26,343 bases of DNA from Perkinsela sp. CCAP 1560/9 (taxonomy: Eukaryota; Protista; Euglenozoa: Kinetoplastea): the NCBI GenBank assembly GCA_965644495.1, contig CBFFSA010000074.1:1-26343 (forward strand), given 5' to 3'. Below are positions 1,350-24,679 of this stretch, piece by piece. Both the position numbers and the translations under genes were made by a program. Positions within the stretch are counted from its first letter, which is position 1. Each line of letters starts with the position of its first letter. Under the pieces are notes generated by a model. That model did not search any database and was not told the DNA's origin. It worked only from the letters and a program-made list of their open reading frames with translations.

Positions 1350-2301
1350 GAAATCAACGACGAGAGTCTTCCACATACATTAAAAACAACTTGTAAGAAA
1401 ACATTGTTGTAAGAGCTAAAGAAATATATCGCTGATATCCTGAATCTCATCCACTGCCTATATTTACTAGCTAAAGAATATTCGTATTATTGATGCAACT
1501 ATCCGGATGTATATAGCGCGCAAACTATTTCAAAAGCATAATATAAAAATATAATACGTAGTGAAGGGGCTTTGCCCCCTGGCACGCAGCCACTGGTTGG
1601 GGGCTGGTGGGAGGGCATCGCACACTAATAAAAATAACTTGTAAGAGAATGTAAGCTATAAAACTATACACAATCTACATAAAGTTATAATTTAAATCAT
1701 ATTAAAAGATATAATAGAATTCATAATCAGAGATTATGTGCCTCGTAGGGCCATTCGAGAAAAAGGAGTCTTTTCAAATTCGTATTTGTTCTCGTCTAAA
1801 TTTCTTCTCGTAAACTATCATAAGCTTTTTTTTTTTTTTTATGAGTCGCGGCATTGCCTCTATACTTTAACCCAGTAGACGAACCGAGTAGGTCCATTGG
1901 GGGATATACGAGTTGAAAACAAGCAATCAAATTAGCAATTTTATATTGTTTTTATGCAAATAAAGAAAATTTTTCTCTCTCTTTCTCCTCTTTCTCACCT
2001 CTTGACATACTTTTCCCACCTTTCTCCCTACTTTCCTGCTTTCCCCTACCCAACTTTTCAACTTTTCAGGGGGGGTAAGGTCTCCCTCAGCTTCGCCTCA
2101 CCCGGCCTGCAGGCGGCTCCTCAACCATTCGCGCGTTCCGGACCGGGTCTTTCGACCTCTCCACGGCCTGACTTGTGGACCCTTCCCTTGTTATACGGGA
2201 GGGCGCAGGCGCGGGCCTGTGTCGACAGCGACACGGTCGCGAAACAGGATGCTGGCCGACGGGGAGGAGATTCACTACCCGTGTACTACCTCACTTGGGG
2301 T
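1350..2301. repeat. 952-bp direct repeat, copy 1 (copy 2 at 17897-18848)
   Basis: Constant offset of 16547. Only one substitution seen (aaatttcTtctcg vs aaatttcCtctcg), and the internal T15 run has the same length. Confidence 0.95.
1616..1820 (-). repeat. 205-bp leader/terminal repeat 'A', copy 1
   Basis: Near-identical to 18163-18367 and 22643-22847; partial copy at 24562-24679. Confidence 0.92.
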
Positions 2302-2501
2302 ACCTAGCCCTGACGGACTAGGCGTGAGCATAGACTCTGTCGACTCGACCAGCATCCGGGCCAGAGGTATGTGGCCCTGCGCATGGCGTCTTCGCCATGC
2401 CCCTAAGCGCCTTCAAGGGGGGCGTTAGGGTCACTGACAACTATCCTGGAGACCATCATCCGAGCCTGGGAACGCATCAACGTGACATTAAGCTCTTGCA
2501 A
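1826..2501 (-). mobile_element. Non-autonomous polyadenylated structured-RNA retroposon (SINE-like, family S), copy 1
   Basis: Ends in A15 on the minus strand, is flanked by ATAAGC at 1820-1825 and 2502-2507, and has a GC-rich hairpin core at about 2075-2430. Related copies lie at 18373-18848, 23423-23700 and 23704-24270. Confidence 0.55.
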
Positions 2502-2507
2502 ATAAGC

Positions 2508-5003
2508 TTTTTTTTTTTTTTTTAAAAGTAAAGGTCTTAATAAATTTTTTGTATTAAGATCACCTTTACCTTCAGAGTTGCTACTTTTCCGCCTTCATCA
2601 CTTACTACTATTAGACTTTCCCTCCAGAAGTTGGAGCCATTTTTTTTTTACTATAGTGTAATCCTTTCAGGTCAGGGCATCCGGCTTACGTTGTATGTCG
2701 GAAAACGTTGTCTTAATAATTGTATGATATAAACTGCGAATCCTCTTCAAACAATTCTTTTCGTAAACTATGAGACTTCCTACCACGGATTCTCACTGCA
2801 TATTCCATCAAAAAGCGCAAATATCGTCCCCATGGCTTTGGCTCAGGTACTTTCTGAGCTGGCCTAGGAGAATGTTTCCATTCATCTCCTGCAAGAGAAG
2901 TATGAAATCGTTTTCCACCTTGCTGGGCTCAATAGAAATGTTTTCCGCCAGAAGCCGTAGCAGCTCCCGAGTTCGGGCGTGCAATGAGCCACTTGACAGC
3001 ACCGGTAAACAGGCGAATTGCTCCTCGGCGAACATATTCGATGAGACGTATTTGGTGTTTTTCCGCGCGATCGCATCTTTGATTGCCTTCGCCGGTGTTG
3101 TTCCCGCAAGAGATGGTGCCAGATCGTGTACGACGGTGAGATCATAGAAGATTTCACCTGTCGCCCAATAAATAACCAAATCGGGCCCTGAACGGTGTAG
3201 CGTGCTGCCTTTGCATGTCGCAATGTGCTCTCGCCGACGTTCTTCTCGGATCACCTCGGAGCATGATGTGCACACATATGTGGAGAATTGCCGTGGCTCT
3301 AATTCACAAGGAATACCCGCACGCAGACACATATTATGAATATAGCGTACTAGTGCGTTGTGCTTTACCGTTGTATTCATTCCCGCACATCGGACGCAAC
3401 CCGGAATATGTGTAAGGGCAGTGGCACTGTTTAGAAGAACTCTGCATCCGGGGCAGGTGAGAGATTCGGGAAGACGTGGATGGCCCATTCCCAGGCGGGG
3501 CATTACTGCTAAGGTGAATTTCCGCGACGGCACGAGTCGCTCGTTTGCTTGTATCCATGTATAACTACCCTTCTTCGTTGTAGCGTCCATGATTCTTGCA
3601 AATTTCTTGTTCTTCCGAAGGCGCTCCTTCACTTCTTTGTGCATCTTGACTTCGACTGCCGTCATCTCAGCGACAGGTGCAGTGTCCGACTCGCTAGGCG
3701 TGACTTGAGCTGAAAGGAATTTTGGCTGCTCAAAAGCCACACTGCGCGACGCCTGGTACGCGGCCGCTCGGAGTGCATCAGTAGAAGGCAGGCCCAGCCC
3801 ACCCATACGAAGGGGAAGCCTTGCCCAGTCCAGTTGATCTTGCGTCATTGGTCCGAACCATGTCTTCAGAACTTTATCAACTTCGCCGTCAAACTCCTTT
3901 GCCATCGCTTCAGAGGAGTTCGGTGTGTGTGTGCGAATATGAAAACGATGACGAATGTTAACACATTTAGAGAGCAGGATAATAGATACGTTGCTCGCTC
4001 CCATCTGACTTAACCGACGGAAAATTGTTTTATGTTTCTGTAGCTTTTCTAGTAGTAGGGGATCTACCTTTTCGTCTTCTCCCACGTAAGCGCCGAGAAC
4101 CTTGATTGCGTCCTTCTCTACGTTGACTTGCGCCATTCGCAGAACTTCCGGAATTTCCGTGCCCTTCGTTCCTCCGAACCACACACATTTATGATTTGCC
4201 ATTTGCATGTTTCTTTCATTCAACAAATCCCACAGTCTATAAAATGCCTTCGTTAGGAGTGCAGGATCATCCGAAGCAAAGTTTATGTCGTCTATGTATG
4301 CGAATATTTTGATCGAGGGAAATTCTAAGGCCAGCGTTGCGAGGATGGGTTGCATCATTGTACAGAAAAGAAGCGTAGAAAGGGGAGACCCCTGTCGAAC
4401 TCCTGCTGTGCTGAAAACTTTGTCGTGTAACTTTCCGTCTGATCCAAAATACAGCAGCTCCGACGGCTCGGCATATTGAGCGTGAAAAAGCCTCCAGAAC
4501 GGTCGCAAACTAGAGAACGCGAAGAGTGCGTTCGCGATGTCTTGCCTCCAAGGAGTGTTGAATGCATTGCTGATGTCCATTGTTAGGATTGATTGTCCTT
4601 CCTGATAGAGTTTATGTAGGCGGTGTAATACTGTTTCACATCCTGATTTAGTTGCCACTCCGAATTGCCACGGAGCAAAAATCGGCGGCAGACAATGTTC
4701 ATATTTTTGCAACAAGACGATCTCTGCTAATTTTAGAAAAATCTCCCCAACAGCAACCGGGCGCACGTCCCTTCCATTTGCTTTCGGTATGGCGACTAAC
4801 CTTGCCCTCTACAACCTGTCCATCACGTCTTTCGAGATCGCTCCATTTACAACATCCAGTAACATGTGACACAGAGCTGTGCAACAGATTTGATCGTCGA
4901 GCAACAGTCTGACTATACCGTCCGTTGTCCCAGATGGACCGGGTGCCGCGCCCTTGGCCAATCGACGACCTGCCTCGCGGAGTTCTTCCGTTGTTATGAT
5001 CGC
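2508..5003 (-). mobile_element. CRE-like non-LTR retrotransposon CRE-2, 5'-truncated, with 3'UTR and poly(A)
   Basis: RT+RLE ORF, 3'UTR 2524-2807 and T16 tail at 2508-2523. The reading frame extends upstream to about 5003 (EELREAGRRLAKGAAPGPSG) through one in-frame TAG at 4809-4811. Confidence 0.85.
2808..4766 (-). CDS. CRE-clade reverse transcriptase + zinc knuckle + restriction-like endonuclease (partial, probably pseudogenised)
   Basis: Motifs RPVAVGE, QFGV, DISNAFN, GVRQGSPLS, YIDD, LPLRMGGLG, CPGC...HIPGC, KHNALV, PDLVIYW...YDLTV, KNTKY. Confidence 0.9.
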   Translation of the reverse strand: MRPVAVGEIFLKLAEIVLLQKYEHCLPPIFAPWQFGVATKSGCETVLHRLHKLYQEGQSILTMDISNAFNTPWRQDIANALFAFSSLRPFWRLFHAQYAEPSELLYFGSDGKLHDKVFSTAGVRQGSPLSTLLFCTMMQPILATLALEFPSIKIFAYIDDINFASDDPALLTKAFYRLWDLLNERNMQMANHKCVWFGGTKGTEIPEVLRMAQVNVEKDAIKVLGAYVGEDEKVDPLLLEKLQKHKTIFRRLSQMGASNVSIILLSKCVNIRHRFHIRTHTPNSSEAMAKEFDGEVDKVLKTWFGPMTQDQLDWARLPLRMGGLGLPSTDALRAAAYQASRSVAFEQPKFLSAQVTPSESDTAPVAEMTAVEVKMHKEVKERLRKNKKFARIMDATTKKGSYTWIQANERLVPSRKFTLAVMPRLGMGHPRLPESLTCPGCRVLLNSATALTHIPGCVRCAGMNTTVKHNALVRYIHNMCLRAGIPCELEPRQFSTYVCTSCSEVIREERRREHIATCKGSTLHRSGPDLVIYWATGEIFYDLTVVHDLAPSLAGTTPAKAIKDAIARKNTKYVSSNMFAEEQFACLPVLSSGSLHARTRELLRLLAENISIEPSKVENDFILLLQEMNGNILLGQLRKYLSQSHGDDICAF

Positions 5004-5339: not shown

Positions 5340-7320
5340 TTACAACCGAAGTCCTCCCATCCATTTCTCTGCCGGGATGTAGTCTCTGAGTTGAGATACT
5401 ATCGTGTAAGCGGACATCTTCTCAATCTCGAGTTGGAACGCGTTGCGCACGTTATCATAGTTCAGCTTCGCTCTTTGTGAGAGAGCCTTTAATAGGGCCT
5501 TTGTATCAACATGTAGCAGGCCGCAATCTGTTGCGGCCAGACATTTGAATGAATCGCTGTCGACGCCTTTCTCAACCACATATTTCTTGTACTTTCTGTC
5601 GGCGACCTGTTGCATGAGGGCAGAGCTGGTTTGTTTGGCATAGCTAGTACAGCACGTGTGAACCACTGTAAAATCATAGAGCACCTCACCGATGTGAGGC
5701 CACATGATGGCAAGATCTGGGCCGGAACGAATGCGGCGGGCTTTGCAAGGATGTTGCTCGGCGACTTCTGCGGAAATCGTGCACTTACATTTTGTGCAGT
5801 GGTACGAAGAGTAAATGCGCGGTTCGATAACACTAGGCAGGCCTGCTTTTGAGCATAACTCTGCGAGATAACGGACTATGTGTGAATGCTTGCGGGTAGA
5901 GTTCATGCCGGAGCAACGGGAACATCCAGCAACGTGGGGAAGGATGGTTGAAGGAGATTCTTGATTCGAACATCCAGGGCAAATCATTTTGGTCGGTGCT
6001 TTTGGCACGCCGATTCCCAAGCGCATCATGAGCGTGTATCTGAAAAGATACGGGTTAACGTAGTTACTTGTATGTTCGAGGTGAAAATTAGCTTCCTTGG
6101 TGCGCTTCAAGATATTTGTTAAGGTTGAGTCTTTTTGCACTTCAATTAATTGCTTGTCATGCGCTTGGCTCAGGTTCTTTTTAAGAAATTTGCGGGCCTT
6201 TTCCGCGCGGCTCTGAGCTTTAGCTTTGACCTTGCCGCTGCCCTCTGAATCTACCGGAGCGTTATTGGGTTCAAATTGCTCTTCAATAGATTCTCGGGCA
6301 GCTGCGAAGTAATATTGTTGTTTCAGAGTGCAAGAAATCAAGCCTAATCCGCCTAGTTTTTGCGGGAGCGCTGCAAGCTTGAGTGCCTGGACATCGGCGC
6401 CACACCATTTCTGCAGGACCTCGTGTATGTGCTGCTCGAAAGATTGGGCTAGGTAAAGAGTAGCCTCCGGGCGGTGAACTCTTAAATGGTAGTCTTGGCG
6501 TGGAATTGTACAGCGGCGCAAAATCGCCAGAGAGAGGTTACTCGGGCCCATGAGAAGAAGGCGACGAAATAGGCATTTGTGCTTGTTCAATTTGCGCAGG
6601 AGAAGATCTTCTACCACATTGTCTTTGCCGATATAGGCTCCTAGGATCTTTATCGACTCGGTGCAAAGATTAACGCCTAAGTTTTCTAATGAAAAGGGTT
6701 CGCATGACGCACATTTCTGAAAGAATTCACATTTTTGAAAGTTAACGCATAGATTGAGCTCGGCTGTGGTTTCGCGTAAGTGCAGGAACGCCGCTTCGAG
6801 TGATCGCACGTTGGTGGAACTGAGAGTCACGTCGTCTTGGTAGGCTCTTATTTTGACGTCAGGGTATAGGCTTAGGACTTCTCGAAGAGGACCTTGTAAG
6901 AGTGCACAGAAGTACATGGAGGATAGGGATGATCCCTGGCGAATTCCTGAAGAGCTTTCTATGGTTGCAAAAAGGGCATTGTGGGCGAAAAACAATAGTT
7001 CAGATGGCAGGCCGTATTCCAGATAAAACATGCGCATGAAAGGTTTAAACACGGGATTATCTAGTAGTGCCTGGGTTATAGCGTCACGACGTGGAGTGTT
7101 ATACGCATTGCTGAAGTCAACGGTAATCAATGCGTGTCCATTCTCGTATTCACTTAGTAGTTCGTGCACTATCGATTCACACGCGTTCTTGTGGAGTACA
7201 CCTCGTTGGATGGGCGCAAAGTACTTTCGTAGTGCGGCTTCATGTCGCTGAAGTAAAATGGACCCGCAGATTTTGAGGATCGTGTCCCCCATGGCAACCG
7301 GGCGTATACCATTTCGCTGT
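5340..7320 (-). CDS. CRE-clade RT + zinc knuckle + RLE (element CRE-3, C-terminal part; lacks RT domains 0-1)
   Basis: Motifs NGIRPVAMG, DFSNAYN, GIRQGSSLS, YQDD, LPQKLGGLG, CPGC...HVAGC, RKHSHIV, GPDLAIMW...YDFTV, KYKKY. The first ~23 aa of the ORF-track call (up to 7388) are off-frame sequence. Confidence 0.9.
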
Positions 7321-7329
7321 CTGTGTCGC

Positions 7330-8346
7330 GTCTGCTGGTAATTCGAAAACGCAAGGAGCCGCAGGGTGCAGTTTTTGGAGTTTGGCAAATGTTTCTTTAT
7401 CAGATAATTTGTTGATTACAGTGACCTGATCCAGAACTTTTGCCGCTTTTGAGATCGACCCCTCGAGCACAAGGCGTGTGGCTTTTTTTATCGCTCTGCG
7501 ATCAGCGAATTGCCCTTCGTCCGCGTCCTTCTCTCTTTCTTCAAGCTCGGATTGCGTAAGCACTGGGCGACGTCGTCGACTGCGCGCTGACTGCTCTCTT
7601 AATTCTGCCAGCGAGTATTTCATCGCGGAGAGCACCCTGTGCCATATCCGACAGCGGTGAACATAATCACAATCTGCATAATCCCTCATAAGATCGCGGT
7701 AAACCGACACCACGCACGGTATAAATGCAGCGCTTACGTTTCTGACTGTAGGAATAGGTTCGTAATCCAAATCTTCGACTGTTTGCTTCACAGACGGTAT
7801 ATCTTTTGCAGGCGCGACTTGCTCGTCTTGAGCGCCTCTATTCAAAACGTTAATCCATACAATTTTATAGATGCGCACACTTTCCTGAGCAGGAATCGAT
7901 CCCGCGAAGCTTCGTTCCTTGCAGTGTCCTTGTAGGCCGTTGTATTTTACAGTCAGTCTGCGTACACCTGCCCTTGATCTCGCCGTTTGAACTGTGCCAG
8001 CAGAGATGTTTAACAATACTTGTTGGTCGAAACACCACGCTACCACACATTCGTCGCCTTTCCGAGCATTTCTGGTATGTGACTCCACTTCTTGCGGCGT
8101 CAATGGGAACTCAGTCTCAGGTTTCACGTTTGCGCGCATGTCGTCCACAATTTGCGTTAGTCGGTCTGCATTGTTCGTCGAATCTACATTCACTTCATCA
8201 AGCGGCAGGGGCGAGGGTATGCGGCCTGGGCTGGGTGATTGTCCTTTCTCCTCTGACGCGGGTGAGCTGCAGTCGTAGAACTCTTCTGGCTGAATTTCAG
8301 GTTGCGCAACTGGTTTGGACTTGGAGGCAGTTGTTGCTTGTTGTTT
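7330..8346 (-). pseudogene. CRE-like N-terminal region (CRE-3 5' part), 5'-truncated and out of frame with the downstream RT
   Basis: Frame open from about 8346 with no upstream ATG. ECVVAWCFD, FIPCVVSVYRDLMRDY, RAIKKATRLVLEG and KLQKLHP all match CRE-1. Confidence 0.82.
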
Positions 8347-8366
8347 TTATTTTTATTTTTACTCGT

Positions 8367-9261
8367 ATGAACACGCAAAACGCCGAACAAATTATGAAGA
8401 GGGGATCAACGCTCGATAAGCCAAAGAAAACCCCCCGTGTGAGAGTTATTATGAGTGCAAAGGAATTATCGCCGAACTGGGCCGACCACGAGGTACATAG
8501 CAACTACCGACGGCCAAGGATAAAATTTTCTGATGCAAGGCCGACCTCACAAGAGTCCGAGAATGATTCCGATGAGGAGAGAGATTCATCCAAACATCCT
8601 GAAGATTGCGAAGGCGCCTCCGATGATACCACAGGCGAAGAATCTGATGTGATGTCGGTGGATGAGGACGTAACGTCGATGGATGGGGAAGTGGGGCAAC
8701 GCAAAAACGAAGAATTTCCGAAGGCTCCAGATCACATCAACACCATTATCCATGAATGGGGCAAAGGAACGACGTGCGAACTGAGATGGGGATTCAAAAA
8801 AGAGCAGAAATATGCCTCAAAAGGAGTAGTGGTGAAGAGGACTGTCCGAAAAGGTATTGTAAAGCTGAAGGTGGAATACAAGCCAAGCGACGGAGACAAT
8901 GGACCCTCTGGTTTTATCTACCTTCCTCCATCTGCAAAAGTGAAAATTTGGTCCATTAAGGCACTGTGTCTAGATAAAGTAAAAAGCGTCGATGTGTCAA
9001 TGGAAAACACTGGAAATTCAGAGAACAAGGAGGAGCGAGGCATTGAGGGAACATCTGATTTGGAACCGCTGCCAAAGATGGCACAAATTGATCCAACGTT
9101 TGCCGTCCATGTAATCGCGATTTTTCGTTCCATTATTAAAGCGTACCCGAAGGCTCAGACAGAAGCAGAAAGAACTGTTATCTGGCACAAACTCCTCGAT
9201 ACACCACGGGACTCTTTGGCCACAATCCGTCTAAACTACCTACGTCGCCAGAGCTCCGTAC
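8367..9261 (+). pseudogene. CRE-4 N-terminal region (acidic low-complexity stretch, beta-barrel-like domain, helical domain)
   Basis: ATG at 8367. FAVHVIAIFRSIIKAY...IWHKLLDTPRDSLATIR aligns with CRE-1 and CRE-3 FVPCVVAIYRDIMRDY...IWNRTLSAMKHSLATVR. Confidence 0.78.
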
Positions 9262-9478
9262 AGCGTCGAGGGAGACGTGAGTGGGAAACTATCGATAGGA
9301 CATACATTTTAATTTCGTCTGTTTTAGAAAATAGGATAAACTAAACTCTTCAATTCTTGCAAAAGTGTAACTCATTAAATATTAGACTCATTCCATGTGC
9401 TATATGTTCTTCTATTTTCTTCTAATGGGCAAACTAGATGAGGGCTAAGTATGGTTTGCTTTGAAAATACGGAATTCC

Positions 9479-12004
9479 CTACGGGCGCCGTAGGCTCTCA
9501 ATATAAGTACCGATGGAGGGCAGTGGTGTCAATTCTTCAGCGCTGGATTTTCTCGTGAAGGGATCTGATATTTGGGCGTTGGTAGGTACCCACTTTACTT
9601 CCAGGTTAGTGTTTGATGGGATGTACTGCATCCACCTATTGGCAGTGAAGTTAGTGCTTGCCCGCCTCTGGAGGGCCATGGCCACAGGCGCGTTGTCGAC
9701 GTTCAATAGAATGTCCCGATGTCCTTTTCTGACTGCTGCCATAATTCCACCAAGAGCCGCACTCAGCTCTGAGTAGAATATATGGGCTCCGGGCTTTGTC
9801 ATGCCCTGTTTTGCAGTTTCGAGAATGCCTTGATTGAACAACAGAATAGCCCATGCGATTGAACTGGCATCAGTCCAAACTTCCACCTTTTCTTCTTTGG
9901 GTATATGACCTATCTTTTTTAACCAAACATTTCGCTTGAGTGCGGAAAATGCATCAGTCAGTTCGCCTAACAGGTGGTCGGTCGGAGAGAAGGAGATCTC
10001 CCAAGACTTTTCGTCGTGCACTTTTCTGGCAACTTTTCCTAGTGTTTGAAGAAGGTGTGCAAAAGTGCATAGTGGGATTTTCATAACCGTGGCCCTCCAC
10101 ATTAGTAAACCAGAAAGCGTATACAGTTCCACAGCTGTCCACGTCCCATTCCCGATTATGTCATTGTATCTTGAATACGCCTTTTCAGTCCACTTTTCTG
10201 ACATGCGGTACTTCTTATTTTTTAGATCAAATTCAATACCAAGTACGCACGCTTCCTGTAGTGGCTTCATGGTGAGATCATCTACTTCTAGTTGAACTGC
10301 GTGGACTCGGGCGCGAAATTCTTTTGCATGGTTTTCTACTTCTGACTTGGATTTTCCGAACAAAAGAAAATTGTCTACCCAGGCCAATCCAATGTCCCGG
10401 ACAATGCGATTTGAAACTCGCTGTGCAATAGCCGGGGCCCATGACCATCCCATGGGCATGGAAGAAAATTGAATACTGCATGTTTCTCCTCTAGCGTGAC
10501 CTAAAACCGCTCCAAAGTAGGATCGGATCTCGGGAGCGAGGGAAAATTGGTAAAAGTAACTCCGTGCGTCCGCGTGAGCCATCCATTCCGAATCTAGCAG
10601 ATTTTCAATCACGTTATGTATGGATGGTAGGTGCATTGCGGGGGGGCATTCGAAAACTCGGTTGAGTTTCCTACAATCGCAGATTAGACGAAGTGTGGAG
10701 TCTTTCTTCGGAACTGTAAAGGTACGATGTACTACTATCGGTCCTTCGGTCTTCTCTACAACCCCCATGCGTAATAAGTCTGGTAAATGATGTCTCATAA
10801 ATCGAGACACTGGTCGATTGCCTTTAGGTGCACGCAGCATGTGCGCGTGAAAGGCGTTGACGTTCTGTAGTAGATGTAAAAAGTCTAGGCTGCCATCGTC
10901 ATTCATATTGTTCAGTATAGAATATGACAGTCTTGTGGTTGTGATAGGAGCAATTATTCCCTGATTTTTGTACGCTCGCACGCTCGGTGGTCGGGTGAGC
11001 TGCCCGCGAGACATAGACTGATTGTTTGTGTCTTCAATTTTCTTCGTTGCAATGTTAGCAATGTCCGTTGAATTATGCACGTAGATAGGTTCGGGATTCG
11101 GTTCGCCTATAATGTTATCGCTGTCTAGCGTGATCTTACCGATGTGCAAGGGGAACCTACCTTGTAATTGACGTTTTAGTATGTAAACAGCTGATTTAGT
11201 TTTCTTGTCATGTCCTTTGGTGTTTTCTGGGTTCACAGTAATTTTGTCGCGTCCTGTAGCCCTAGGGACAAGGCCACTTCCAGTCGAGGGAGATATATCC
11301 ACAATGTCTCCAGATCTTTGTGCTTGGCCAACAGCTGTATTACCGACAGTGGAACTCCCTTTCTGAGGAGTGATACTAGAGCCCCTCTTTTTACAGAATG
11401 TGCCGACAACTCTGCTTTCACCCGCTTCAGCACGGCATTGGCTCTCAGCGTCGTTAAAGTCGTGAACTTGTCTTCTGGCTTCAGCTTGTCCAATTGGTCC
11501 ATGAAGATTTTCCACTCCGTCAAGTTGCAAGTCATTGGAATAGCAGTCCCTACTCTGAAGGGATCCCCTTTGTGAGTCGGAAACGTTACTCCCAGTATTC
11601 TCCGCTCGAGATCTACCACTTGTAAATCTAATTTCCTCAGATGTTTGACATCGTCTATTCTGCTGCATGTCTTCCACGCCAAGGTCAGGCCCGCGGCTTC
11701 GTCCGGAAGCAGCCATTCGCACGCCTCCAATACTTGTTCGCGTGTAGCCGGGGGCGCCTGATGCTCCGGTATTTGAGCCCCTTGACGCTGAAGGGATCGC
11801 ATGTAGGCTGTTACTGTCGACTTTTGCAATTGACCCCCAGATCGGAATATGATTTGTATCAGACTCTTTGCATACGTATGTGCGGTTTGGATGCTGATGG
11901 TACCCCGTTGAGTTTGCGGATTGATTAGTCTCATTTTCGACTCCAAGAAGCATATTATGCACCAATCTTCGCTTGGAACGTCGTTTCCGAGATTTTCCTT
12001 CCAA
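9479..12004 (-). CDS. Reverse transcriptase / RNase H of YR-1 (frame stays open upstream to 12607)
   Basis: RT motifs FTVPKKDSTLRLICDCRKLN, DARSYFYQF, MPMGWSWAP, WVDN, LGIEFD. RNase H motifs VWTDAS, ELSA, VDN, SDPFTR. Confidence 0.9.
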   Translation of the reverse strand: MEGKSRKRRSKRRLVHNMLLGVENETNQSANSTGYHQHPNRTYVCKESDTNHIPIWGSIAKVDSNSLHAIPSASRGSNTGASGAPGYTRTSIGGVRMAASGRSRGPDLGVEDMQQNRRCQTSEEIRFTSGRSRAENTGSNVSDSQRGSLQSRDCYSNDLQLDGVENLHGPIGQAEARRQVHDFNDAESQCRAEAGESRVVGTFCKKRGSSITPQKGSSTVGNTAVGQAQRSGDIVDISPSTGSGLVPRATGRDKITVNPENTKGHDKKTKSAVYILKRQLQGRFPLHIGKITLDSDNIIGEPNPEPIYVHNSTDIANIATKKIEDTNNQSMSRGQLTRPPSVRAYKNQGIIAPITTTRLSYSILNNMNDDGSLDFLHLLQNVNAFHAHMLRAPKGNRPVSRFMRHHLPDLLRMGVVEKTEGPIVVHRTFTVPKKDSTLRLICDCRKLNRVFECPPAMHLPSIHNVIENLLDSEWMAHADARSYFYQFSLAPEIRSYFGAVLGHARGETCSIQFSSMPMGWSWAPAIAQRVSNRIVRDIGLAWVDNFLLFGKSKSEVENHAKEFRARVHAVQLEVDDLTMKPLQEACVLGIEFDLKNKKYRMSEKWTEKAYSRYNDIIGNGTWTAVELYTLSGLLMWRATVMKIPLCTFAHLLQTLGKVARKVHDEKSWEISFSPTDHLLGELTDAFSALKRNVWLKKIGHIPKEEKVEVWTDASSIAWAILLFNQGILETAKQGMTKPGAHIFYSELSAALGGIMAAVRKGHRDILLNVDNAPVAMALQRRASTNFTANRWMQYIPSNTNLEVKWVPTNAQISDPFTRKSSAEELTPLPSIGTYIESLRRP

Positions 12005-12381
12005 ACTGTATACTGTTTGTACACGCTGGAAAGGTGATTCCAGCGCGAGTTGGATTTCTCTTCTAATAGACGATCCTGGCCTAGAACGATCATTTGTTGA
12101 ACGTCGACTGTAGGAATCGCGGCTCTTGTTTCTCTGTTGCCTTCCACGCGGTCGAGGAAGAGGTCTTCGATCTCCAGTAAGTTCTTTGCTCTTGATCTTG
12201 TTACTATCCCTGTAACAGCCCTGTTGCTCGTGGAAGGTTGCTTGTACTGAGTACTTCGGACATGACTGGTAGTGCCGGCGCCGGTTGTGGTTTCCGTTTG
12301 ATTTCCGTATGTTTCGTTTCCCTCTTCTTGATATTGATTTTTTATGCCCCTTAATAAATATATTTCCAGAATATTCTTCAC
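11233..12381 (-). CDS. Tyrosine recombinase of YR-1 (frame open up to the gag stop at 12478)
   Basis: Catalytic residues R (WKTCSRIDD), K (THKGD), H..R (AHSVKRGA), H (LAKHKD), Y (LWIYL). Confidence 0.88.
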   Translation of the reverse strand: MKNILEIYLLRGIKNQYQEEGNETYGNQTETTTGAGTTSHVRSTQYKQPSTSNRAVTGIVTRSRAKNLLEIEDLFLDRVEGNRETRAAIPTVDVQQMIVLGQDRLLEEKSNSRWNHLSSVYKQYTVWKENLGNDVPSEDWCIICFLESKMRLINPQTQRGTISIQTAHTYAKSLIQIIFRSGGQLQKSTVTAYMRSLQRQGAQIPEHQAPPATREQVLEACEWLLPDEAAGLTLAWKTCSRIDDVKHLRKLDLQVVDLERRILGVTFPTHKGDPFRVGTAIPMTCNLTEWKIFMDQLDKLKPEDKFTTLTTLRANAVLKRVKAELSAHSVKRGALVSLLRKGVPLSVIQLLAKHKDLETLWIYLPRLEVALSLGLQDATKLL

Positions 12382-12477
12382 TGTAAAGATTATTGCCCCT
12401 AATGTCGATAGTTCTATTATATTGCCCCTTATATAATCTATTGTTTCTTGGACTAAATTTCTGTTGAATTCTTCGAG

Positions 12478-13233
12478 TCAGAATTTTTTCCCTTGCGGTT
12501 TTGTCATCGGGCCCGCGTTTCGCCCTGTTCGGTCGTTTTTTGTATCCATGGCTTTGATCATTGCAGGTAGAATTTTTCCCCGCAGTCCCCCGGTCGTTTT
12601 TGCTTCTTCAAGAGCCTGTGCGAAGACGCGGCAGTCCCCATGCTGAACGCGAACTTTGTAAGCAACCAACGCCGCCAATATGTTGTCCCCGACCGCCATG
12701 TTCCCGTCTGATTTCCATACAAGTCCCATTTTCATTGAGTTTCGCACCCAAGCCAAAAATGCTAGCAACAAATCGTTCTTCCGATGCTCGTCTTGGTGAT
12801 AGCGTGGGGCATTGCGTTCGGCAGCTCCAATACCAAAGTAGCGACGCAAATGAGCGTCCAATTCCACAAAACTACGATCTCGCGTCTCCGAGGGTGCCTC
12901 GATGAACATCGCGTACGTAGATAATTCAAGCGGTTCGAACGTTCCAGTCTCTCGGCCTTCAACACGCTCCATCGCAGCGGAGTAAGGGTCAGTGGCGAGT
13001 TTCTCCACCCCATGTAATCGAGCATTCGTCGGAGGAAACGTAAGCTCGCCAAATTTCGCATAGTCCACCAACATAGTTGTTTTCTCTTCGCCAATCTTCT
13101 TCACCACTCCCTTCCACATTTCTCCACGTGGCACTTTGTCTGAGGACCATAAAACCGCGATAGTGACGCCAACCTGACTCTCGGCCACAAACCGTCCAAT
13201 GCGAGAGTCAGATAGTGGGGGGAGGTCATTCAT
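12478..13233 (-). CDS. Gag-like protein of YR-1
   Basis: First ORF of the element, ATG start, weak similarity to the YR-2 Gag (FEPLELSTYAMFI vs FSVIFPLTWKSYI). No CCHC knuckle. Confidence 0.72.
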   Translation of the reverse strand: MNDLPPLSDSRIGRFVAESQVGVTIAVLWSSDKVPRGEMWKGVVKKIGEEKTTMLVDYAKFGELTFPPTNARLHGVEKLATDPYSAAMERVEGRETGTFEPLELSTYAMFIEAPSETRDRSFVELDAHLRRYFGIGAAERNAPRYHQDEHRKNDLLLAFLAWVRNSMKMGLVWKSDGNMAVGDNILAALVAYKVRVQHGDCRVFAQALEEAKTTGGLRGKILPAMIKAMDTKNDRTGRNAGPMTKPQGKKF

Positions 13234-13473
13234 TGTGCGTTTTTTTTGCTTTGAAAATACGGCTAGGATTACAATGAGCTACACATAATTATCCATCGTT
13301 TACTTCCATACATGTATGAATACGGTGCATTAAAACGATTTCACATTTTTACATGTATTACTCAAAGAGTTCCTGCAATACTAAATATTATAAATAAATG
13401 TTATAAATAAAATAATACGGGCATTTTCTAAAATTTTCATCATGGGCTGAAAAAGGACTACATGTTTTCGTAC

Positions 13474-15350
13474 GTCCCACTTGGGGATTAGCATCCCACA
13501 CGGCGAACATTACCGAGGAAGAACGACTTGTACAAGAAGTAGACAAACGATCAATTCGAAATGCATTGCAAGCAGCAAAGGCAGGAAATCTTGGAAAAGC
13601 TACCCGCATACTCGACAATGTTTACAAGGACTCTGCTCTTCCACTCTGGGAAAAGGTTGACAAACTTCGAGATCTACACCCCAAAGGCCCTACACCTCAA
13701 ACTTCTGATCGAGACTTCCCGCGAATTGCGATATTGGAACCTTCTGAACTTCGTCTAGCGACTGAAAAATTGTCAAAAGGTGCAGCTCCTGGCCCGACAG
13801 GTCTGAGTGAAAGCATGATGCGAATTTTAGTGGAGGACGAAGAATCCTGCCTTTCACTCTGCCACATGCTGAGAGACGTCATAAATGGGGAAGTTGCGAA
13901 AAGTGTCCGAGTAAGATTAACACGATGCAGAATGATAGCCCTTGCAAAACCGAACAATGGAATACGACCGGTTGCAATGGGGGAAACGCTGCTAAAAATT
14001 TGCGGTTGTATCCTCCTTGAGCGCCATGCGAACTCCTTGTCAGACATATTCCAACCGATCCAAAGAGGCATATTACAAAAGAATGCATGTGAGTCCATTG
14101 TACATGAACTTTTGGAAGAGCATGAAGCTGGAGCCACAATTTTGACGATTGATTTCAAGAATGCATACAATACGCCACAACGTACGGCAATAGAAGAAGC
14201 GCTCCTTCAATACCCGGTATTCAAACACTTTATGCGAATGTTCTATTTTGAATATGGTCAACCATCGGAACTTTTATTTTTCGCCAACGACTCATTACAT
14301 TCCGTGATCGAAAGCTCGTCTGGGGTCCGTCAAGGATCAGCACTCTCTTCGGTTTATTTTTGCGCACTGCTACAAGGTCCTTTGAAAGAAATTGCGAAGC
14401 TCTATCCAGAGGTTACTATCAGAGCCTACCAGGACGATGTGACGATGAGCTCCAAAAATGAGTCGTCTTTGGAAGTTGCGTTCCTTCACCTCAAAGAACT
14501 AGCAAGTGGTCTGAATCTTGAAATTAATTCCCGTAAATGCGAAGTATTCCAAGGCAACAGTTCAACGAATAATCGAGGGATGGATCTCAAGGAACTTGGG
14601 GTGGAAGACTGTGTGGATTCCATCAAGGTCCTAGGAGCATACATCGGGCATAATAAAGCCGTTGAACGAAAGCTCTTGGAGAAGTTAGGGAAACATAAAT
14701 GTTTATTTCGAAGACTTCGCGCTATGGGTCCCAGCAACTTGTCACTAGCGATTCTCAAGCGATGTACCATACCCCGTCATGATTACCACCTTCGAGTCCA
14801 CAAACCTGGAGCTTCGTTTCTTCTTGCCCAGGTGTTCGACGAGGAAATCCATGAAATCTTAAAGAAATGGTGTGGTGCAGATAGTGAAGCACTTAAACTC
14901 TCTGCCCTCCCATGTAAAATGGGAGGTCTAGGAATCACCTCAACCGTTCTAAAGCAACGCTACTTTTTCGAAGCGTCCCTAAAATCTATTGATGAGCGAT
15001 CGAAACCCATTAATGCTCCGGTAGATAAGGGAGGCAAGAAACAAGCCGACAGGACACGAACGAATTCACAAGCTGCACGCACCCAGCTAAGAAAGAGCAT
15101 GAAGAATGAACACGAGAAGACAGCAGCAGAATTGAATGCAATACCGAGATTCCAAAATATCATAAAGCGAACGAAGGAGGCGAACAATCACTTAGATTCA
15201 ACGTGCAACTACGTAAATCCATATCTTTTTCGTTACACTCTAATGATGCGCCTAGGAATTGCTCTAAGTAATGTGTCAGGCGAGATTACATGCCCTGGAT
15301 GTGGAACAATCGAAACATCAAGCAAAATCATTCACGATGTGCTGGCATGA
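13474..15350 (+). CDS. CRE-4 reverse transcriptase (separated from its N-terminus; frameshifted in the zinc knuckle)
   Basis: Motifs KLRDLHP, KGAAPGPTG, GIRPVAMGE, DFKNAYN, GVRQGSALS, YQDD, LPCKMGGLG, CPGC. Confidence 0.9.
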
Positions 15351-15910
15351 ATTGCACGAGAAAACATTCTCATTTGGTACGCTATATTGCCGAAATGTGC
15401 TCCAAAGCTGGTCTTCCATGTGCGATCGAACCTCGTATTCATGCGTCCTTTTTTTGCACCAAATGCAAGTGCTCAATTTCCCCAGAAGCGGCGGAATACC
15501 ATCCTTGCCGAGCGCGTCGAATTAGATCTGGCCCAGACCTAGCGATTATGTGGCCAGATGTTGGAGAAATTTTATACGACGTTACCGTGGTACATACGTG
15601 CTGCAGCAGCTATGCAAAGCAGAGCAGCAATGCCCTGCTGCAGAGTGCGGAAGAGCGGAAGATAGCAAAATATGTCAAAGAAAAAGGTCTTGATCCAGAA
15701 TGCTTTCGCTGCATAGCTGTGACAGATTGTGGAGTACTACATGAAGAGACAAAGGTTTTGCTGAAAACATTGGCGAAAAGAAATGATGTTGATTACAAGA
15801 TTGTACGAGAAGCTTTTCAACTTGAACTGGAAAAATATTCAGCCTATGCAGTCGCTCAATTGCGCCAATATATAGAAACCGAGAAATGGGTAGGAGGACT
15901 CCGTCTTTAA
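15332..15910 (+). pseudogene. CRE-4 restriction-like endonuclease domain (after the frameshift)
   Basis: SRCAGMNCTRKHSHLV...CTKCKC...HPC...RSGPDLAIMW...YDVTV...KIAKY...KWVGGLRL is collinear with the CRE-3 C-terminus. A short deletion removed the equivalent of PHVAGC. Confidence 0.88.
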
Positions 15911-17465: not shown

Positions 17466-17490
17466 CAACAAGGTACAGAAACTGTATCAC
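17466..17490 (-). other. Spliced-leader (mini-exon)-like 3' remnant
   Basis: Minus strand reads GTGATACAGTTTCTGTACCTTGTTG, matching the conserved euglenozoan SL 3' half (...ACAGTTTCTGTACTwTATTG). Not followed by a GT donor. Confidence 0.7.
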
Positions 17491-18914: not shown

Positions 18915-20507
18915 CTAAAAAATTCTGCTTATTGGGTCCGCTGGATTTAGTTTCGTAGAAATATAATGAGCTTGAATACATATTCCTTTATTCTTTAAAC
19001 TCTGTAAAATGCTTTTCAATTCTTTCGCTATGCCATCAGACTTGCATATTTTCCGATTCAACGCTGCTCGACAAGACGTATTATCAATCCAAAGCTGAAC
19101 GCAAGTCCCTTGCTCGAAATATTTTTGGAATTCTTCGAGGGCGAATCGCACCGCCGCCGCTTCTGATTTGTTAACTTCGTAGGTCCATTCTGCTGGCCAA
19201 GGTGCGCCCAAAATCTTAACCTCTCCGCTATCCATGTACAGAATTGCTCCCCATCCTTTTGAGGAGGCGTCTGTAAAGAGTTTATGACGCGGAGGTGCAG
19301 TGGCGGGGTGAGGGGGTGCTCTTATCGGCACGTTTTTAATCAAGTCGTCACGCCATTGAGCTAAGATCACACGAGTTTTCATGGGAAGATCCACGATTTT
19401 GTCCTTTGCAAAAGGATGTCGGTTCAAGTAATTAATACGTCGTTGTACTATTTTTATCGCAAAGTGATATTGCGGGATTACCACACCAAGTATCGAAGAG
19501 CAGTACAGTAGACGCCCCACCGCCGCCTCCAGCTCTAAGAAAGTGAGTCTCGAAAAAGTATCCCGTTTCAATTTGCTCACAACCTTCGGTCCCAAGCAGA
19601 CCCGGCTTGATGCGTGATCAAATTTCACTCCGTTGAACACGTATTGTTTCGTCGGAGGAACGTCCTGATCTTTAAATCGAGCTCCTGCCACTCGCGCACG
19701 CGAGTCAATAAAATAAACATACTCGTCTGCATGTTTTCTAGATCCGGAAAAACGAACTCCATCTATATAGATATCAGTAGAACCGTGTTGATACGAGTGG
19801 GATTTTGAGCAATAATCTTTATTTCCTGCCAACGCTGCTGTCATGCAATGCATAATTTCAGGCGCACATCTGTGGCCCATGGGTAAAACATTCATTTCGT
19901 ATAATTGCCCATCTTCTGCACGAAACCGAAACTTTGCTCGGGATCGTAAGGGTAAGCCAACCTGGTAAAAACCACACATTAGATCACGTTTTACCCCCAC
20001 CTCAGCATTTACTGCGTATAAATAACGAGAAGGGTGTAGGAGAGGAACAGCTGGTTCGTAGTCCTTTAGGCGTAAATTGTCTGATCGTGTCCATGAAATA
20101 AAACGTCTTCTGTCTTTGCCCGCGTCGTCTTTTTCAAGGACAGTGAACGGAACCATATATTGCATGGTCGGGCGTCGTTTGGCTTCTTCGGTAGATACCT
20201 TCGATATGACTTTAGACCGAATCAATGCTGGAATGTCTCCTGGAGCCAATGCCGGTTTAATGCAAGGAGCGGACTCAGCTTTCTCGGGCAACTTGGTGAG
20301 TTCATCAAGAACGTACGTTAGCCTATCATTCTGTTGTTCCGTTAGCCACTTCCGTAATTTTTGAACATTCAACGTCGGAATATTATCCTTTGCATGCAAG
20401 GGGATATGGTAGTCGTCGGTTTTAGCTAATTTGGAACTGCGCCTTGGACATAAAATTGAATACGATTTAAGGAAAGGAACCTGTTCGTAAAACTCCTGAA
20501 CCATCAC
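18915..20507 (-). CDS. Reverse transcriptase / RNase H of YR-2
   Basis: RT motifs PFTVLEK...RRRFISW, DLMCGFYQV, VLPMGHRCAP, YIDG, FNGVKFD. RNase H motifs LFTDASSKGWG, EAAAV, IDNTS, NPADPISR. Confidence 0.9.
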   Translation of the reverse strand: MMVQEFYEQVPFLKSYSILCPRRSSKLAKTDDYHIPLHAKDNIPTLNVQKLRKWLTEQQNDRLTYVLDELTKLPEKAESAPCIKPALAPGDIPALIRSKVISKVSTEEAKRRPTMQYMVPFTVLEKDDAGKDRRRFISWTRSDNLRLKDYEPAVPLLHPSRYLYAVNAEVGVKRDLMCGFYQVGLPLRSRAKFRFRAEDGQLYEMNVLPMGHRCAPEIMHCMTAALAGNKDYCSKSHSYQHGSTDIYIDGVRFSGSRKHADEYVYFIDSRARVAGARFKDQDVPPTKQYVFNGVKFDHASSRVCLGPKVVSKLKRDTFSRLTFLELEAAVGRLLYCSSILGVVIPQYHFAIKIVQRRINYLNRHPFAKDKIVDLPMKTRVILAQWRDDLIKNVPIRAPPHPATAPPRHKLFTDASSKGWGAILYMDSGEVKILGAPWPAEWTYEVNKSEAAAVRFALEEFQKYFEQGTCVQLWIDNTSCRAALNRKICKSDGIAKELKSILQSLKNKGICIQAHYISTKLNPADPISRIF

Positions 20508-21679
20508 ATTATCGATGCACCGGGGAGAAGTACTGACACCTTCTGAGTCCCTAACGCTCTTGCCGTAGTTATTTGGTTGGCGTTGTACCGCAGTAGACTT
20601 TCTACGTTCAAGTGCTTTGAGAGATTCATTACTTCCGATAAGTTGAGGTGGCCTTCTACTATTTCCTGAAATAGAAAGGTGATGGCTCCTCTCTTGATTG
20701 AGTGCGTGCCATATCCGTCGCCTAGGACGTCTCGAATATGGAGATCCATCTCCTGAACTGTCGCGGTGCTCATTCGTTGCCCTGGTCGCAGGCTGCTTAC
20801 ATACTGAGCTATTTGGTTTGTGCCCGGACCCGTGATGATCGCGTACATGTACGGTCGGTACGGATTTAGACGAGTGGTCTTCGTGAAACGTCCCCAGTAG
20901 ATTATTATTTCATTCGAATTTACACTCAGAAATTGCTCCCTTCTTAGCTCGGCCGTTTCGGTCCAGCGTGACGCGGCTTTCCAGCATAGCAGGACCGTCA
21001 TTGCTTGTGTTATCGACAGGCGTGTGCACAATTTTTGCAACATGGGAGGTGTTATCGGTTGCATTTGACGTTGTGGTTCCGTGCCCCCCTGGGCCTGAAT
21101 CGCTTTTGTGAACAACTTCAACGGATTGCATTCCATCCCCATCAACGTGAAAACCGTGTGAAGAGCGCGAGCATAATTGAGGCGAGTTGACGGCGCGACG
21201 CGTAGAGTCTGGAGATACAAAATGGCGGTTGCTGAATTCATCTCTCGGTGCTTCACGCGACAAAATTCGTTTACGTTTTTCCATAGGCGTGTTCTGTTGT
21301 TCCAAGTCGACTTTGCCCACATCGGCTGAATCGCTTCGGTCAGCTGGACGGAGTCCGGATCGTCCGGATTTATCCTCAGAATTGCCTGAGTAATGTTTTG
21401 AACTTGGTCGTGGGATACATCGCGACTGTGTTCTCGTTTTAGTCCTCTGACTGTTTGCGAATCTGTGCGGTGCGCGACACGTGTTTGAGGTAAGACCCTT
21501 AGTGGAATCAGTCGTGTGCAAGGATGCATTTTGGTCTGTATTGGGATACGAGTAGTTTTGGGCACACTCCGGGCACTGATTTTGGGAAATTTGGGAGAGC
21601 ACCTCACGAACGAGTTTTGCAAACTTTTCCACGATCTCTTCAATCCAATGACACGAGTAGTTTTTGGGGTGGGGAACAA
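20504..21679 (-). CDS. Tyrosine recombinase of YR-2
   Basis: WKAASRW (R), TKT (K), THSIKRGA (H..R), LSKH (H), LLRYN (Y). Confidence 0.88.
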   Translation of the reverse strand: MFPTPKTTRVIGLKRSWKSLQNSFVRCSPKFPKISARSVPKTTRIPIQTKMHPCTRLIPLRVLPQTRVAHRTDSQTVRGLKREHSRDVSHDQVQNITQAILRINPDDPDSVQLTEAIQPMWAKSTWNNRTRLWKNVNEFCRVKHREMNSATAILYLQTLRVAPSTRLNYARALHTVFTLMGMECNPLKLFTKAIQAQGGTEPQRQMQPITPPMLQKLCTRLSITQAMTVLLCWKAASRWTETAELRREQFLSVNSNEIIIYWGRFTKTTRLNPYRPYMYAIITGPGTNQIAQYVSSLRPGQRMSTATVQEMDLHIRDVLGDGYGTHSIKRGAITFLFQEIVEGHLNLSEVMNLSKHLNVESLLRYNANQITTARALGTQKVSVLLPGASIM

Positions 21680-21682
21680 TCC

Positions 21683-22645
21683 CTAGTGGATTGTCCGTCT
21701 TTCGCTGCGCACCATTTGGTGGGAACGCGCAGCGCCACTCGCCACCCCCCTCTGAAAAATCTGAGTCAAAAGAGGACAGTTAGCACGTATATGACCTGGT
21801 TTACGACAATTATAGCAAACAGGGTTGGCACGGCGAGAAATACGAGTTTGCTTGAGCTGTTCCTCAAGCATCATTTTCCCAAATACGTCATTGGGGTCTT
21901 CCACTTGATGGAGGCGTTGTTGAACACGATCGACTGGCGCTCCAGCAGCTGCCCAATAGTGCGTGCGTAACTCCTCGATCAGCATGGTAGCGATAGCAAC
22001 GAAATCTTCTGTCCAGGTGCCTAGCTCGCGCGCCGCATAAATCCATTTGGTGAGGATAGTAAACAAGCGCTCTCGGATTGGGGGAGGGTTGAAGCGAACA
22101 CCTAATTGAGGAGCATCGCGCAATTCTCTGATCAATTCACGGGGCTTGAAGTCATCTTCAGAGTATATATACGATTTCCATGTCAAGGGGAAGATTACTG
22201 AAAATGCCTTGGGGTTTTCTACGCCCACTTCAGATTGGATAGGATCACTCACCCGTTGTCCACCCGGCATACGTGCTTGAACCTTGACGAAACTGAGATC
22301 GTAATAGCTTATATCCGGGAAAGGAAACGAATATTCAATGTCAGGGTCATCGTCCCATCGCGCTTTAATCTCACTGTTCGGATCTTTTGGATTCTTAAAG
22401 TAGACACGACCTGTAACCGTGTATCGATCCTGGTCCCCTCGCTCCGACCACACTGCTTGAACGAAGACGCGATAACCTCGTGAGAGTAGTAAATTGGTTT
22501 TATCTGCAAATTCTCGCAAAGCTTCTTCGGACAACGGAACGGCATGGCCACCGCCTTGCAGAATCGCCTCAACCTGGCCAGGGTTGAGTGTCTGCTGGTG
22601 ATCACTCGGCGCGGCCGGATCAGGACTGATCGCTCTGGCCGTCAT
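21683..22645 (-). CDS. Gag-like protein of YR-2 with CCHC zinc knuckle
   Basis: CYNCRKPGHIRANC (C-x2-C-x4-H-x4-C); first ORF of the element. Confidence 0.85.
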   Translation of the reverse strand: MTARAISPDPAAPSDHQQTLNPGQVEAILQGGGHAVPLSEEALREFADKTNLLLSRGYRVFVQAVWSERGDQDRYTVTGRVYFKNPKDPNSEIKARWDDDPDIEYSFPFPDISYYDLSFVKVQARMPGGQRVSDPIQSEVGVENPKAFSVIFPLTWKSYIYSEDDFKPRELIRELRDAPQLGVRFNPPPIRERLFTILTKWIYAARELGTWTEDFVAIATMLIEELRTHYWAAAGAPVDRVQQRLHQVEDPNDVFGKMMLEEQLKQTRISRRANPVCYNCRKPGHIRANCPLLTQIFQRGVASGAARSHQMVRSERRTIH

Positions 22646-24271: not shown

Positions 24272-24348
24272 AACGCACATAAAGTTCAGCCATCACTTAT
24301 GATTAAGAAAAACTTCTAGAAAAACGTTTAGCAGAAGATAAACTCTAT
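24272..24348. repeat. 77-bp repeat identical to the window end (26267-26343): 5'UTR and first codons of the Cys-rich ORF
   Basis: AACGCACATAAAGTTCAGCCATCAC...GATAAACTCTAT occurs at both sites. Confidence 0.92.
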
Positions 24349-24360
24349 TCCTATATTAAA

Positions 24361-24561
24361 CCCAGATTGAAAGGGGCGAGGGAGATACGAAGCAACAGGC
24401 GTGGCAGATTCCCACTGAAAAGAAATGTTATCTCCCGCACGAAGTTTGTCTCCGAGCTAGAAAGCGCAAAGGCTTTTCTCGTGCGGGGAGATACCATTTC
24501 TTTTCAGTGGGAATCTGCCACGCCTGTTGCTTCGTATCTCCCTCGCCCCTTTCAATCTGGG
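24361..24561. mobile_element. MITE-like foldback element, 201 bp, ~82-bp terminal inverted repeats
   Basis: First 67 bp (CCCAGATTGAAAGGGGCG...AGAAATG) are perfectly inverted at the other end. TTAAA on both flanks (24356-24360, 24562-24566). Confidence 0.85.
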
Positions 24562-24679
24562 TTAAAAGATATAATAGAATTCATAATCAGAGATTATGTG
24601 CCTCGAGGGCCATTAGAGAAAAAGAAGTCTTTTCAAATTCGTATTTGTTCTCGTCTAAATTTCCTCTCGTAAACTATCA
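24562..24679 (-). repeat. Leader repeat A, partial diverged copy 4
   Basis: Matches 1702-1820 with a few differences and ends at the same AAACTATCA boundary. Confidence 0.9.

Follow-up and report, generated by a model that had tools for sequence, protein, structure and literature searches.

We examined a 26,343-nucleotide (nt) stretch of contig CBFFSA010000074.1 from Perkinsela sp. CCAP 1560/9 (the window, to which all coordinates refer) and the mobile element YR-1 that lies in it, with its open reading frames (ORFs) on the minus strand. A gag-like ORF is followed by overlapping genes for a tyrosine recombinase (YR) and for reverse transcriptase with RNase H (RT/RH), the order of VIPER-like elements, and by this gene order and its repeats YR-1 is an intact gag-YR-RT/RH VIPER-like tyrosine-recombinase retrotransposon. 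The region around the gag stop, where we propose that translation branches three ways, contains the following features.

12478 to 13233, minus strand: gag-like ORF1, 251 amino acids (aa), no CCHC knuckle; no Pfam match, gag identity positional
12574 to 12580, minus strand: canonical heptamer G_GGA_AAA, secondary candidate shift site, inside the open -1 frame; no stimulator found
12535 to 12541, minus strand: canonical heptamer A_AAA_AAC (T-K-N), best candidate -1 shift site, in frame 0 and inside the open -1 frame
12495 to 12525, minus strand: candidate H-type pseudoknot, two 4-bp all-GC stems, starting 9 nt after A_AAA_AAC
12484 to 12489, minus strand: A6 run, part of a noncanonical G_AAA_AAA heptamer only
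12475 to 12480, minus strand: gag stop UGA followed by CUC, candidate readthrough site; UGA-CU in 16 of 34 junctions
11233 to 12477, minus strand: tyrosine recombinase frame (frame 0), comprising spacer, conserved N-terminal arm, and Cre-like core with R, K, H-x-x-x-R, H, and Y motifs
12121 to 12237, minus strand: PS..S and R..GN.E.RA..P, conserved motifs of the YR N terminus that lie 5' of the first ATG in frame (12093) and are modeled with a predicted local distance difference test (pLDDT) score of 85 to 92
9479 to 12607, minus strand: RT/RNase H frame (-1), a trans-frame linker spanning the whole YR gene, then RT core and RNase H

The gag ATG is at 13233, and the gene closes with GGG AAA AAA TTC TGA CTC (stop at 12480 to 12478), exactly as in the initial annotation; the C-terminal part of ORF1 aligns with ORF1 of relatives. 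That annotation had also described the two long frames beyond the stop, and both are there. Frame 0 continues open to a TGA at 11235 to 11233, a run of 414 codons with a Pfam Phage_integrase match (E = 1.5e-5), and an AlphaFold2 model of the recombinase (mean pLDDT, 93.3) finds its best Protein Data Bank match in Cre (E = 1e-8). The -1 frame is free of stops from 12607 to a TAG at 9481 to 9479, 1,042 codons that match RVT_1 (E = 1e-11) and the RNase H-like RVT_3, with the RT core beginning at about 11161, WVDN at 10381, and D-E-D-D in the RNase H. Its opening stretch of some 200 codons without an ATG is likewise real; the first ATG, at 11953, lies 218 codons in and 176 codons past the gag stop. 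Two frame-0 ATGs beyond the gag stop, at 12093 and 11934, had gone unmentioned, as had the two canonical heptamers upstream of the A6 run.

Within the 124-codon spacer the third frame contains 12 stops and the two coding frames none. Over the YR core the RT frame of YR-1 has 0 stops, where synonymous recoding gave a mean of 13.0 and never fewer than 5 in 300 draws. The double openness of these frames is not due to chance. From 12477 to 12330, and likewise in the corresponding part of L001-L019, the sequence is rich in AT or U and in the YR frame encodes a hydrophobic segment; it may serve as a splice tract or a functional helix, or may result from keeping two frames open.

For comparison we used 80 related loci from one scan of Joint Genome Institute metagenomes, together with YR-1 and a second, divergent element in the same window:

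18915 to 22645, minus strand: YR-2, type A layout, with a CCHC gag, UAG-GGA at 21685, YR in frame, and RT in the -1 frame opening inside gag

The recombinases of YR-2 and YR-1 are 25% identical and their RTs 22% identical. An automatic junction test was passed by 31 of the 80 loci, and 8 were listed as failing; the remainder had no YR match with a 5' end. After five near-duplicates and the broken copy L048 were dropped, seven loci were added by hand, and L047, L062, and L074 were set aside as ambiguous, 34 gag junctions could be scored. In 22 of them, including that of YR-1, the recombinase follows the gag stop in frame and RT is in the -1 frame (type A); in the other 12 the RT is in frame and the recombinase is in the +1 frame (type B); a third layout was found in 0 of 34. 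At 33 of the 34 junctions (type A, 21 of 22; type B, 12 of 12) the frame-0 ORF opens directly past the gag stop, and by these comparisons the three-frame junction is a family trait. Trees of the RT (26 rows, quick IQ-TREE) and the YR (27 rows, FastTree) give matching groups, and the A/B label changes at least four times on both; the trees are unrooted and do not give the direction of change. The relatives were checked for random frame relations and spacer stops, which the initial annotation had named as evidence against its proposal; instead, the frame relation, leaky-type stops, and -1 heptamers are conserved in divergent relatives.

In seven type B elements (L024, L027, L031, L034, L037, L042, and L054) the +1 frame, that of the recombinase, runs open through the gag stop, and several of these end in UCC-UGA or CCC-UAG, contexts that we take to be like those at +1 frameshift sites. 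Strong stems lie past the gag stop in L024, L027, L034, and L037 (z = -2.3 to -4.8).

The RT frame is under selection. Across 27 recombinase cores it contains a single stop, against about 350 expected under synonymous recoding, and that stop is copy specific: it is the one RT-frame stop of YR-2, at 20912, absent from the 99.6% identical database proteins P0107 and P0108. The linker peptide that this frame encodes across the YR gene is poorly conserved even though the frame lacks stops, which indicates that selection acts on openness, and ribosomes must therefore enter the RT frame near the gag end; the first RT-frame ATG often lies >100 codons beyond the gag stop, and >300 codons beyond it in several relatives. 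Over the final 21 codons of gag, 14 of 22 type A junctions have a canonical slippery heptamer, as against 0 of 12 in type B (Fisher P = 2.4e-4); the background is 5 in 3,912 codons elsewhere in type A gag. Near the stop, 15 of the 22 type A junctions also have an in-frame A_AAC, which 0 of the 12 type B junctions have. Six different heptamers are in use, so this is not one inherited motif, and the disappearance of the -1 heptamers where RT is already in frame supports the frameshift interpretation.

The best candidate in YR-1, A_AAA_AAC, precedes the stop by 54 nt; in the alignment it coincides with the L007 and L014 heptamers and falls within one column of those of L001 and L026. The initial annotation had placed the slip on the A6 run just before the stop. 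The run exists, but we rejected it as the main slip site; it is not a canonical X_XXY_YYZ heptamer, and the heptamers of relatives align upstream, making A_AAA_AAC the likelier site. The pair score of the candidate pseudoknot downstream was matched by 4 of 300 shuffles, at one of four sites tested, and its two helices appear in separate folds. In L001 and L026 there are stems with changes on both sides, and a sliding fold across the family gave weak dips, with a mean z of -1.27 around the stop in type A. YR-2 has its canonical heptamer 8 codons beyond the gag UAG, and nested-fold z-scores for its junction windows were not significant. Taken together, the frames and heptamers make a -1 slip into the RT frame very probable.

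The gag stop of YR-1, the candidate site for readthrough, is UGA and is unchanged in two Logan contigs (X1 record 4 and X2 record 11), the listed differences lying elsewhere. UAA never serves as the gag stop (0 of 34), whereas it makes up 28% of 534 control stops taken from the third frame; UGA-C or UAG-G accounts for 26 of the 34 gag stops, against 17% of the controls. Exact hexamers of the viral type II/III readthrough classes, as defined in the part of PMC13517186 covered, occur at 11 of 34 junctions and at 13 of 534 control stops; 5 of 25 UGA junctions have an exact type II hexamer. The leaky context ascribed to YR-1 by the initial annotation thus holds as a family pattern, while its own UGACUC is not an exact type II hexamer. 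From the gag stop to the first ATG, the type A YR frame contains 1 stop in 895 codons, where 14.5 were expected by codon permutation (minimum, 6 in 1,000) or 67.5 by base shuffle; the YR frame of five type B elements, which is not reached from the stop, has gathered 10 stops. In YR-1, two conserved and confidently modeled YR motifs lie 5' of the first ATG. Readthrough into the recombinase appears likely on these grounds, and it is less secure than the frameshift because most relatives carry an in-frame ATG before the YR core.

We therefore favor a model, resting on comparative sequence patterns, in which translation would mostly end at the gag UGA, releasing Gag (251 aa). A share of the ribosomes would instead slip -1 at A_AAA_AAC and cross the recombinase gene, yielding a Gag-linker-RT/RNase H protein of about 1,250 aa, and others would pass UGA-C by readthrough, yielding a Gag-recombinase protein of 666 aa. 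Both recoding events would occur on one mRNA, and both enzymes, being fused to Gag, would be loaded into the particle at low, set ratios, as with retroviral Gag-Pol. This is in substance the proposal of the initial annotation, which the conserved frame relation, stops, and heptamers support, and we put the probability of the one-mRNA, three-product model for YR-1 at roughly 0.64. In the swapped lineages, RT would be reached by readthrough and the recombinase by a +1 shift or from its own ATG. On balance we lean slightly toward the wider view that VIPER-like elements, including VIPER of Trypanosoma cruzi, use the gag stop region as a three-way switch and that lineages have repeatedly swapped which enzyme takes readthrough and which takes frameshifting (-1 or +1), gaining or losing heptamers accordingly.

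Several observations weigh against this model. All of the support for recoding is comparative, and the 34 junctions share descent, so that the P values overstate their independence; for YR-1 by itself the open spacer is modest evidence (P = 0.014 under the strict null). Nested-fold tests of YR-1 gave no significant stimulator (z between -0.2 and +0.9), folding downstream of the 14 heptamers showed a weak gain over background (mean z = -0.74; P = 0.08), no structure was found 3' of the YR-1 stop, and neither exact type II hexamer (UGACUA or UGACGG) is present there. No canonical heptamer precedes the stop in 8 of the 22 type A junctions; L021 has a -1 frame that opens only 11 nt past the stop, so that readthrough would have to come first; and an RT-frame ATG overlaps the stop in four relatives. 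Most type A relatives have a YR-frame ATG 3 to 90 codons past the stop, and many have a U-rich tract before that ATG, compatible with a trans-splice acceptor. In the part of the PMC6681497 supplements covered, the T. cruzi VIPER junction reads, by eye, UGA-AUG, with the YR ATG directly after the gag stop.

The YR-frame ATGs, the U-rich tracts, and the T. cruzi junction fit the strongest alternative, in which the -1 frameshift takes place but the readthrough does not: trans-splicing would yield a separate subgenomic mRNA for the recombinase, or ribosomes would reinitiate at an internal ATG or a near-cognate start, and the weak stop would do no more than slow termination. Relatives within the clade of YR-1, and L025, have U-rich tracts (16 to 22 T in 30 nt) 44 to 143 nt past the stop and, close by, a YR-frame ATG; in the type B elements L016, L017, and L019, stops occur in the YR frame until such a tract is reached, after which there is an ATG; and in YR-1 the ATG at 12093 lies close to where the modeled recombinase core begins its first long helix. 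A separate mRNA, however, leaves unexplained why the 726 frame-0 codons that run from the gag stop through the tract in type A elements include 0 stops (11.6 expected under the strict null) and why UAA stops are totally absent; moreover, YR-1 itself has no pyrimidine tract (best, 17 of 30), and a start at its first ATG would remove two conserved YR motifs. We consider this alternative unlikely, although a separate trans-spliced recombinase mRNA may act beside or instead of readthrough.

Two further explanations dispense with recoding altogether, and we regard both as very improbable. Splicing could join gag to YR or RT, with UAG-G as a 3' splice site and UGA-CU as a branch point, and TAG|G and (C)TGAC do resemble the acceptor and branch-point consensus. 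The 30 nt before UAG-G stops are nevertheless purine rich (7 to 13 pyrimidines), in 25 of 34 the final 200 nt of gag contain no GTRAG donor and the donors that do occur hold no conserved position, the best branch point, CTAAC, would yield the UAA stops that never occur, and heptamers confined to type A have no place in such a scheme; we rejected cis-splicing on account of the purine-rich stretches and the missing or unconserved donors. Alternatively, both enzymes could start at internal ATGs (RT at 11953, 11716, or 11668; YR at 12093), the open frames being a by-product of overlap. Such ATGs exist in YR-1, and the part of PMC5146736 covered mentions alternative start sites for T. cruzi ORF3, but internal starts give no reason for an RT frame kept open for 176 codons past the gag stop in YR-1 and >300 in several relatives, nor for the enrichment of heptamers and stop contexts. 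We give almost no credence to the UGA being a nonsense mutation in a once-continuous gag-YR gene or being read as Trp by the host, for which no point in favor was found; both were rejected, as a stop is at the homologous place in 34 of 34 junctions and both Logan contigs checked, TGG occurs 13 times and TGA 0 times among the codons of the RT core, and YR itself ends in TGA.

YR-1 extends from 9298 to 13503 and interrupts another element:

13245 to 13503, minus strand: terminal repeat A (5' end of YR-1), from the Logan empty site and joints
9298 to 9472, minus strand: terminal repeat B (3' end in this assembly), from Logan joints
7854 to 9297, plus strand: 5' part of a CRE-like non-long terminal repeat (non-LTR) ORF interrupted by YR-1, continuing at 13504 to 15350

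The empty site 9297|13504 is present in Logan contigs (four runs from one study), where it rejoins in frame without repeated bases, so that YR-1 has no target-site duplication, and restores a single open frame of the CRE-like ORF, which has an RVT_1 match in its 3' part. The last 18 bp of repeat A equal the first 18 bp of repeat B (the 18-bp repeat is at 13262 and 9472). Logan contigs contain end-to-end joints in both orders, B to A and A to B; none spans the full B1-A2-B2, the window copy shows A-ORFs-B only, and circles plus a solo AB would give the same joints. Split direct repeats, A1-ORFs-B1-A2-B2, collapsed in this assembly, are the most likely arrangement. The tyrosine recombinase is intact and takes the place of a DDE integrase, its motifs being conserved in 34 sequences. 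The Ngaro-like order (gag, RT/RH, YR) does not apply, since YR precedes RT, and there is neither an inverted repeat of at least 25 nt at the YR-1 ends nor a methyltransferase match in Pfam, whereas DIRS1-like elements have inverted terminal repeats, an internal complementary region, and a methyltransferase domain. The 38 homologs of the YR-1 RT include proteins labeled Diplonema papillatum and EukProt PhF_6, which we take to be a prokinetoplastid, and none from a named trypanosomatid; the element and its host are likely euglenozoan. By eye, the YR-2 RT motifs match VIPER and those of YR-1 are close to neither VIPER nor TATE. A search of viral contigs returned no relative, and Rfam gave nothing at its gathering score, with one chance match at E = 0.44.

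The surroundings contain further mobile sequence. CRE/SLACS-like non-LTR elements, with RT and a restriction-like endonuclease motif, are clustered at 7854 to 9297 and 13504 to 15910 on the plus strand and at 1 to 1353, 2808 to 4808, and 5340 to 8346 on the minus strand. Repeat A of YR-2 lies 5' of its gag (22847 to 22643) and again downstream (18367 to 18163), a solo copy of the downstream block is at 1350 to 2358, and a pair of 99-nt inverted repeats, 90% complementary, at 24338 to 24584 adjoins a fragment of repeat A of YR-2. A short tract at 17490 to 17475 (minus strand), just 5' of a long low-complexity ORF (17497 to 16445), resembles the 3' part of the kinetoplastid spliced leader; Rfam gave no match, and the ORF is possibly a retrocopied mRNA. 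Elsewhere in the metagenome set, L003, L010, L011, L018, L020, L043, and L056 have related RT ORFs (about 1,000 codons where complete) with no recombinase ORF detected upstream, and in several of them the RT ORF opens after UAG-CG or UAG-G; these are possibly recombinase-less derivatives or carriers of a different integrase. Nine contigs of about 4.4 kb (L001, L002, L016, L033, L034, L050, L051, L056, and L057) close on themselves with terminal overlaps of 81 to 123 nt, as would be expected from split repeats or circular intermediates.

In the literature covered, the expression of overlapping RT and recombinase ORFs in DIRS-order elements is left unexplained. The three-way model, if true, explains both why the RT frame is open across the whole recombinase gene and how three proteins could come from one RNA. 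It would place two competing recoding modes within about 60 nt, with evolutionary swaps between them, and so provide a natural system for the interchange of readthrough and frameshifting; the junctions would also be a source of candidate sites for programmed frameshifting and readthrough by kinetoplastid-type ribosomes.

The closest known system is VIPER of T. cruzi and other kinetoplastids, in the VIPER-like group of the order DIRS (PMC6681497 and PMC5146736, covered in part), which shares with YR-1 the order gag-like, YR, RT/RH, the YR-RT overlap, and the lack of a target duplication; VIPER has split direct repeats, which for YR-1 are most likely but not spanned by one contig. The printed T. 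cruzi coordinates (ORF1, 169 to 1509; YR, 1510 to 2517; RT/RH, 1386 to 4214; alternatively 1 to 1341, 1342 to 2359, and from 1218) give the same frames as YR-1. The initial annotation knew of no description of this combination in DIRS-order elements; the layout had in fact been printed in these coordinates, but the covered text of both papers calls the ORFs overlapping and offers no recoding reading of the junction. A full-text literature search found no recoding proposal for VIPER or TATE in the parts of papers it covered, and older subscription papers beyond its scope may mention frameshifting. The type A/B swap is likewise not described in the VIPER literature covered. Unlike VIPER, YR-1 has a gag without CCHC, and its RT, 22% identical to the VIPER-like RT of YR-2, belongs to a separate lineage. 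By eye, the portions of the PMC6681497 supplements covered show A_AAA_AAC, a 6-nt spacer, and a 10-bp GC stem in T. cruzi VIPER, 9 codons before the gag stop, which reads as a textbook -1 signal; in a Bodo saltans copy both frames are open and G_GGA_AAC precedes UGA by eight codons, and a Crithidia fasciculata copy has A_AAA_AAA before UGA.

TATE of Leishmania (same supplements) has the gene order of YR-1, repeats of the kind most likely for YR-1, and, by eye, a canonical heptamer at the gag end. In one Leishmania braziliensis copy, unlike in YR-1, A_AAA_AAC directly precedes a gag UAA, YR is in the -1 frame, and the RT frame begins deep within YR; this arrangement points to shifts in series and not to branching at a single stop. 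Ngaro elements (PMC8547959 and PMC3783388, covered in part) resemble YR-1 in having a YR and overlapping ORFs, and have repeats of the form A1-ORFs-B1A2B2, but their order is gag, RT/RH, YR (PMC8547959), whereas YR-1 has YR before RT.

The parallel with retroviral Gag-Pol, made by -1 frameshifting in human immunodeficiency virus, Rous sarcoma virus, and mouse mammary tumor virus and by UAG readthrough in murine leukemia virus, lies in X_XXY_YYZ at the gag end with a 3' structure, a candidate one in YR-1 (PMC5009743 and PMC13517186, covered in part), in the UGA-CU, UGA-CG, and UAG-G contexts, and in enzymes fused to Gag, which in YR-1 are proposed only; the covered part of a 2016 frameshifting review does not mention DIRS or tyrosine recombinases. 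Retroviruses, in the sources covered, use one mode or serial shifts leading to one polyprotein, whereas the YR-1 junction would reach two parallel overlapping ORFs, and lineages of the YR-1 family, unlike retroviruses, would have swapped which enzyme uses which route.

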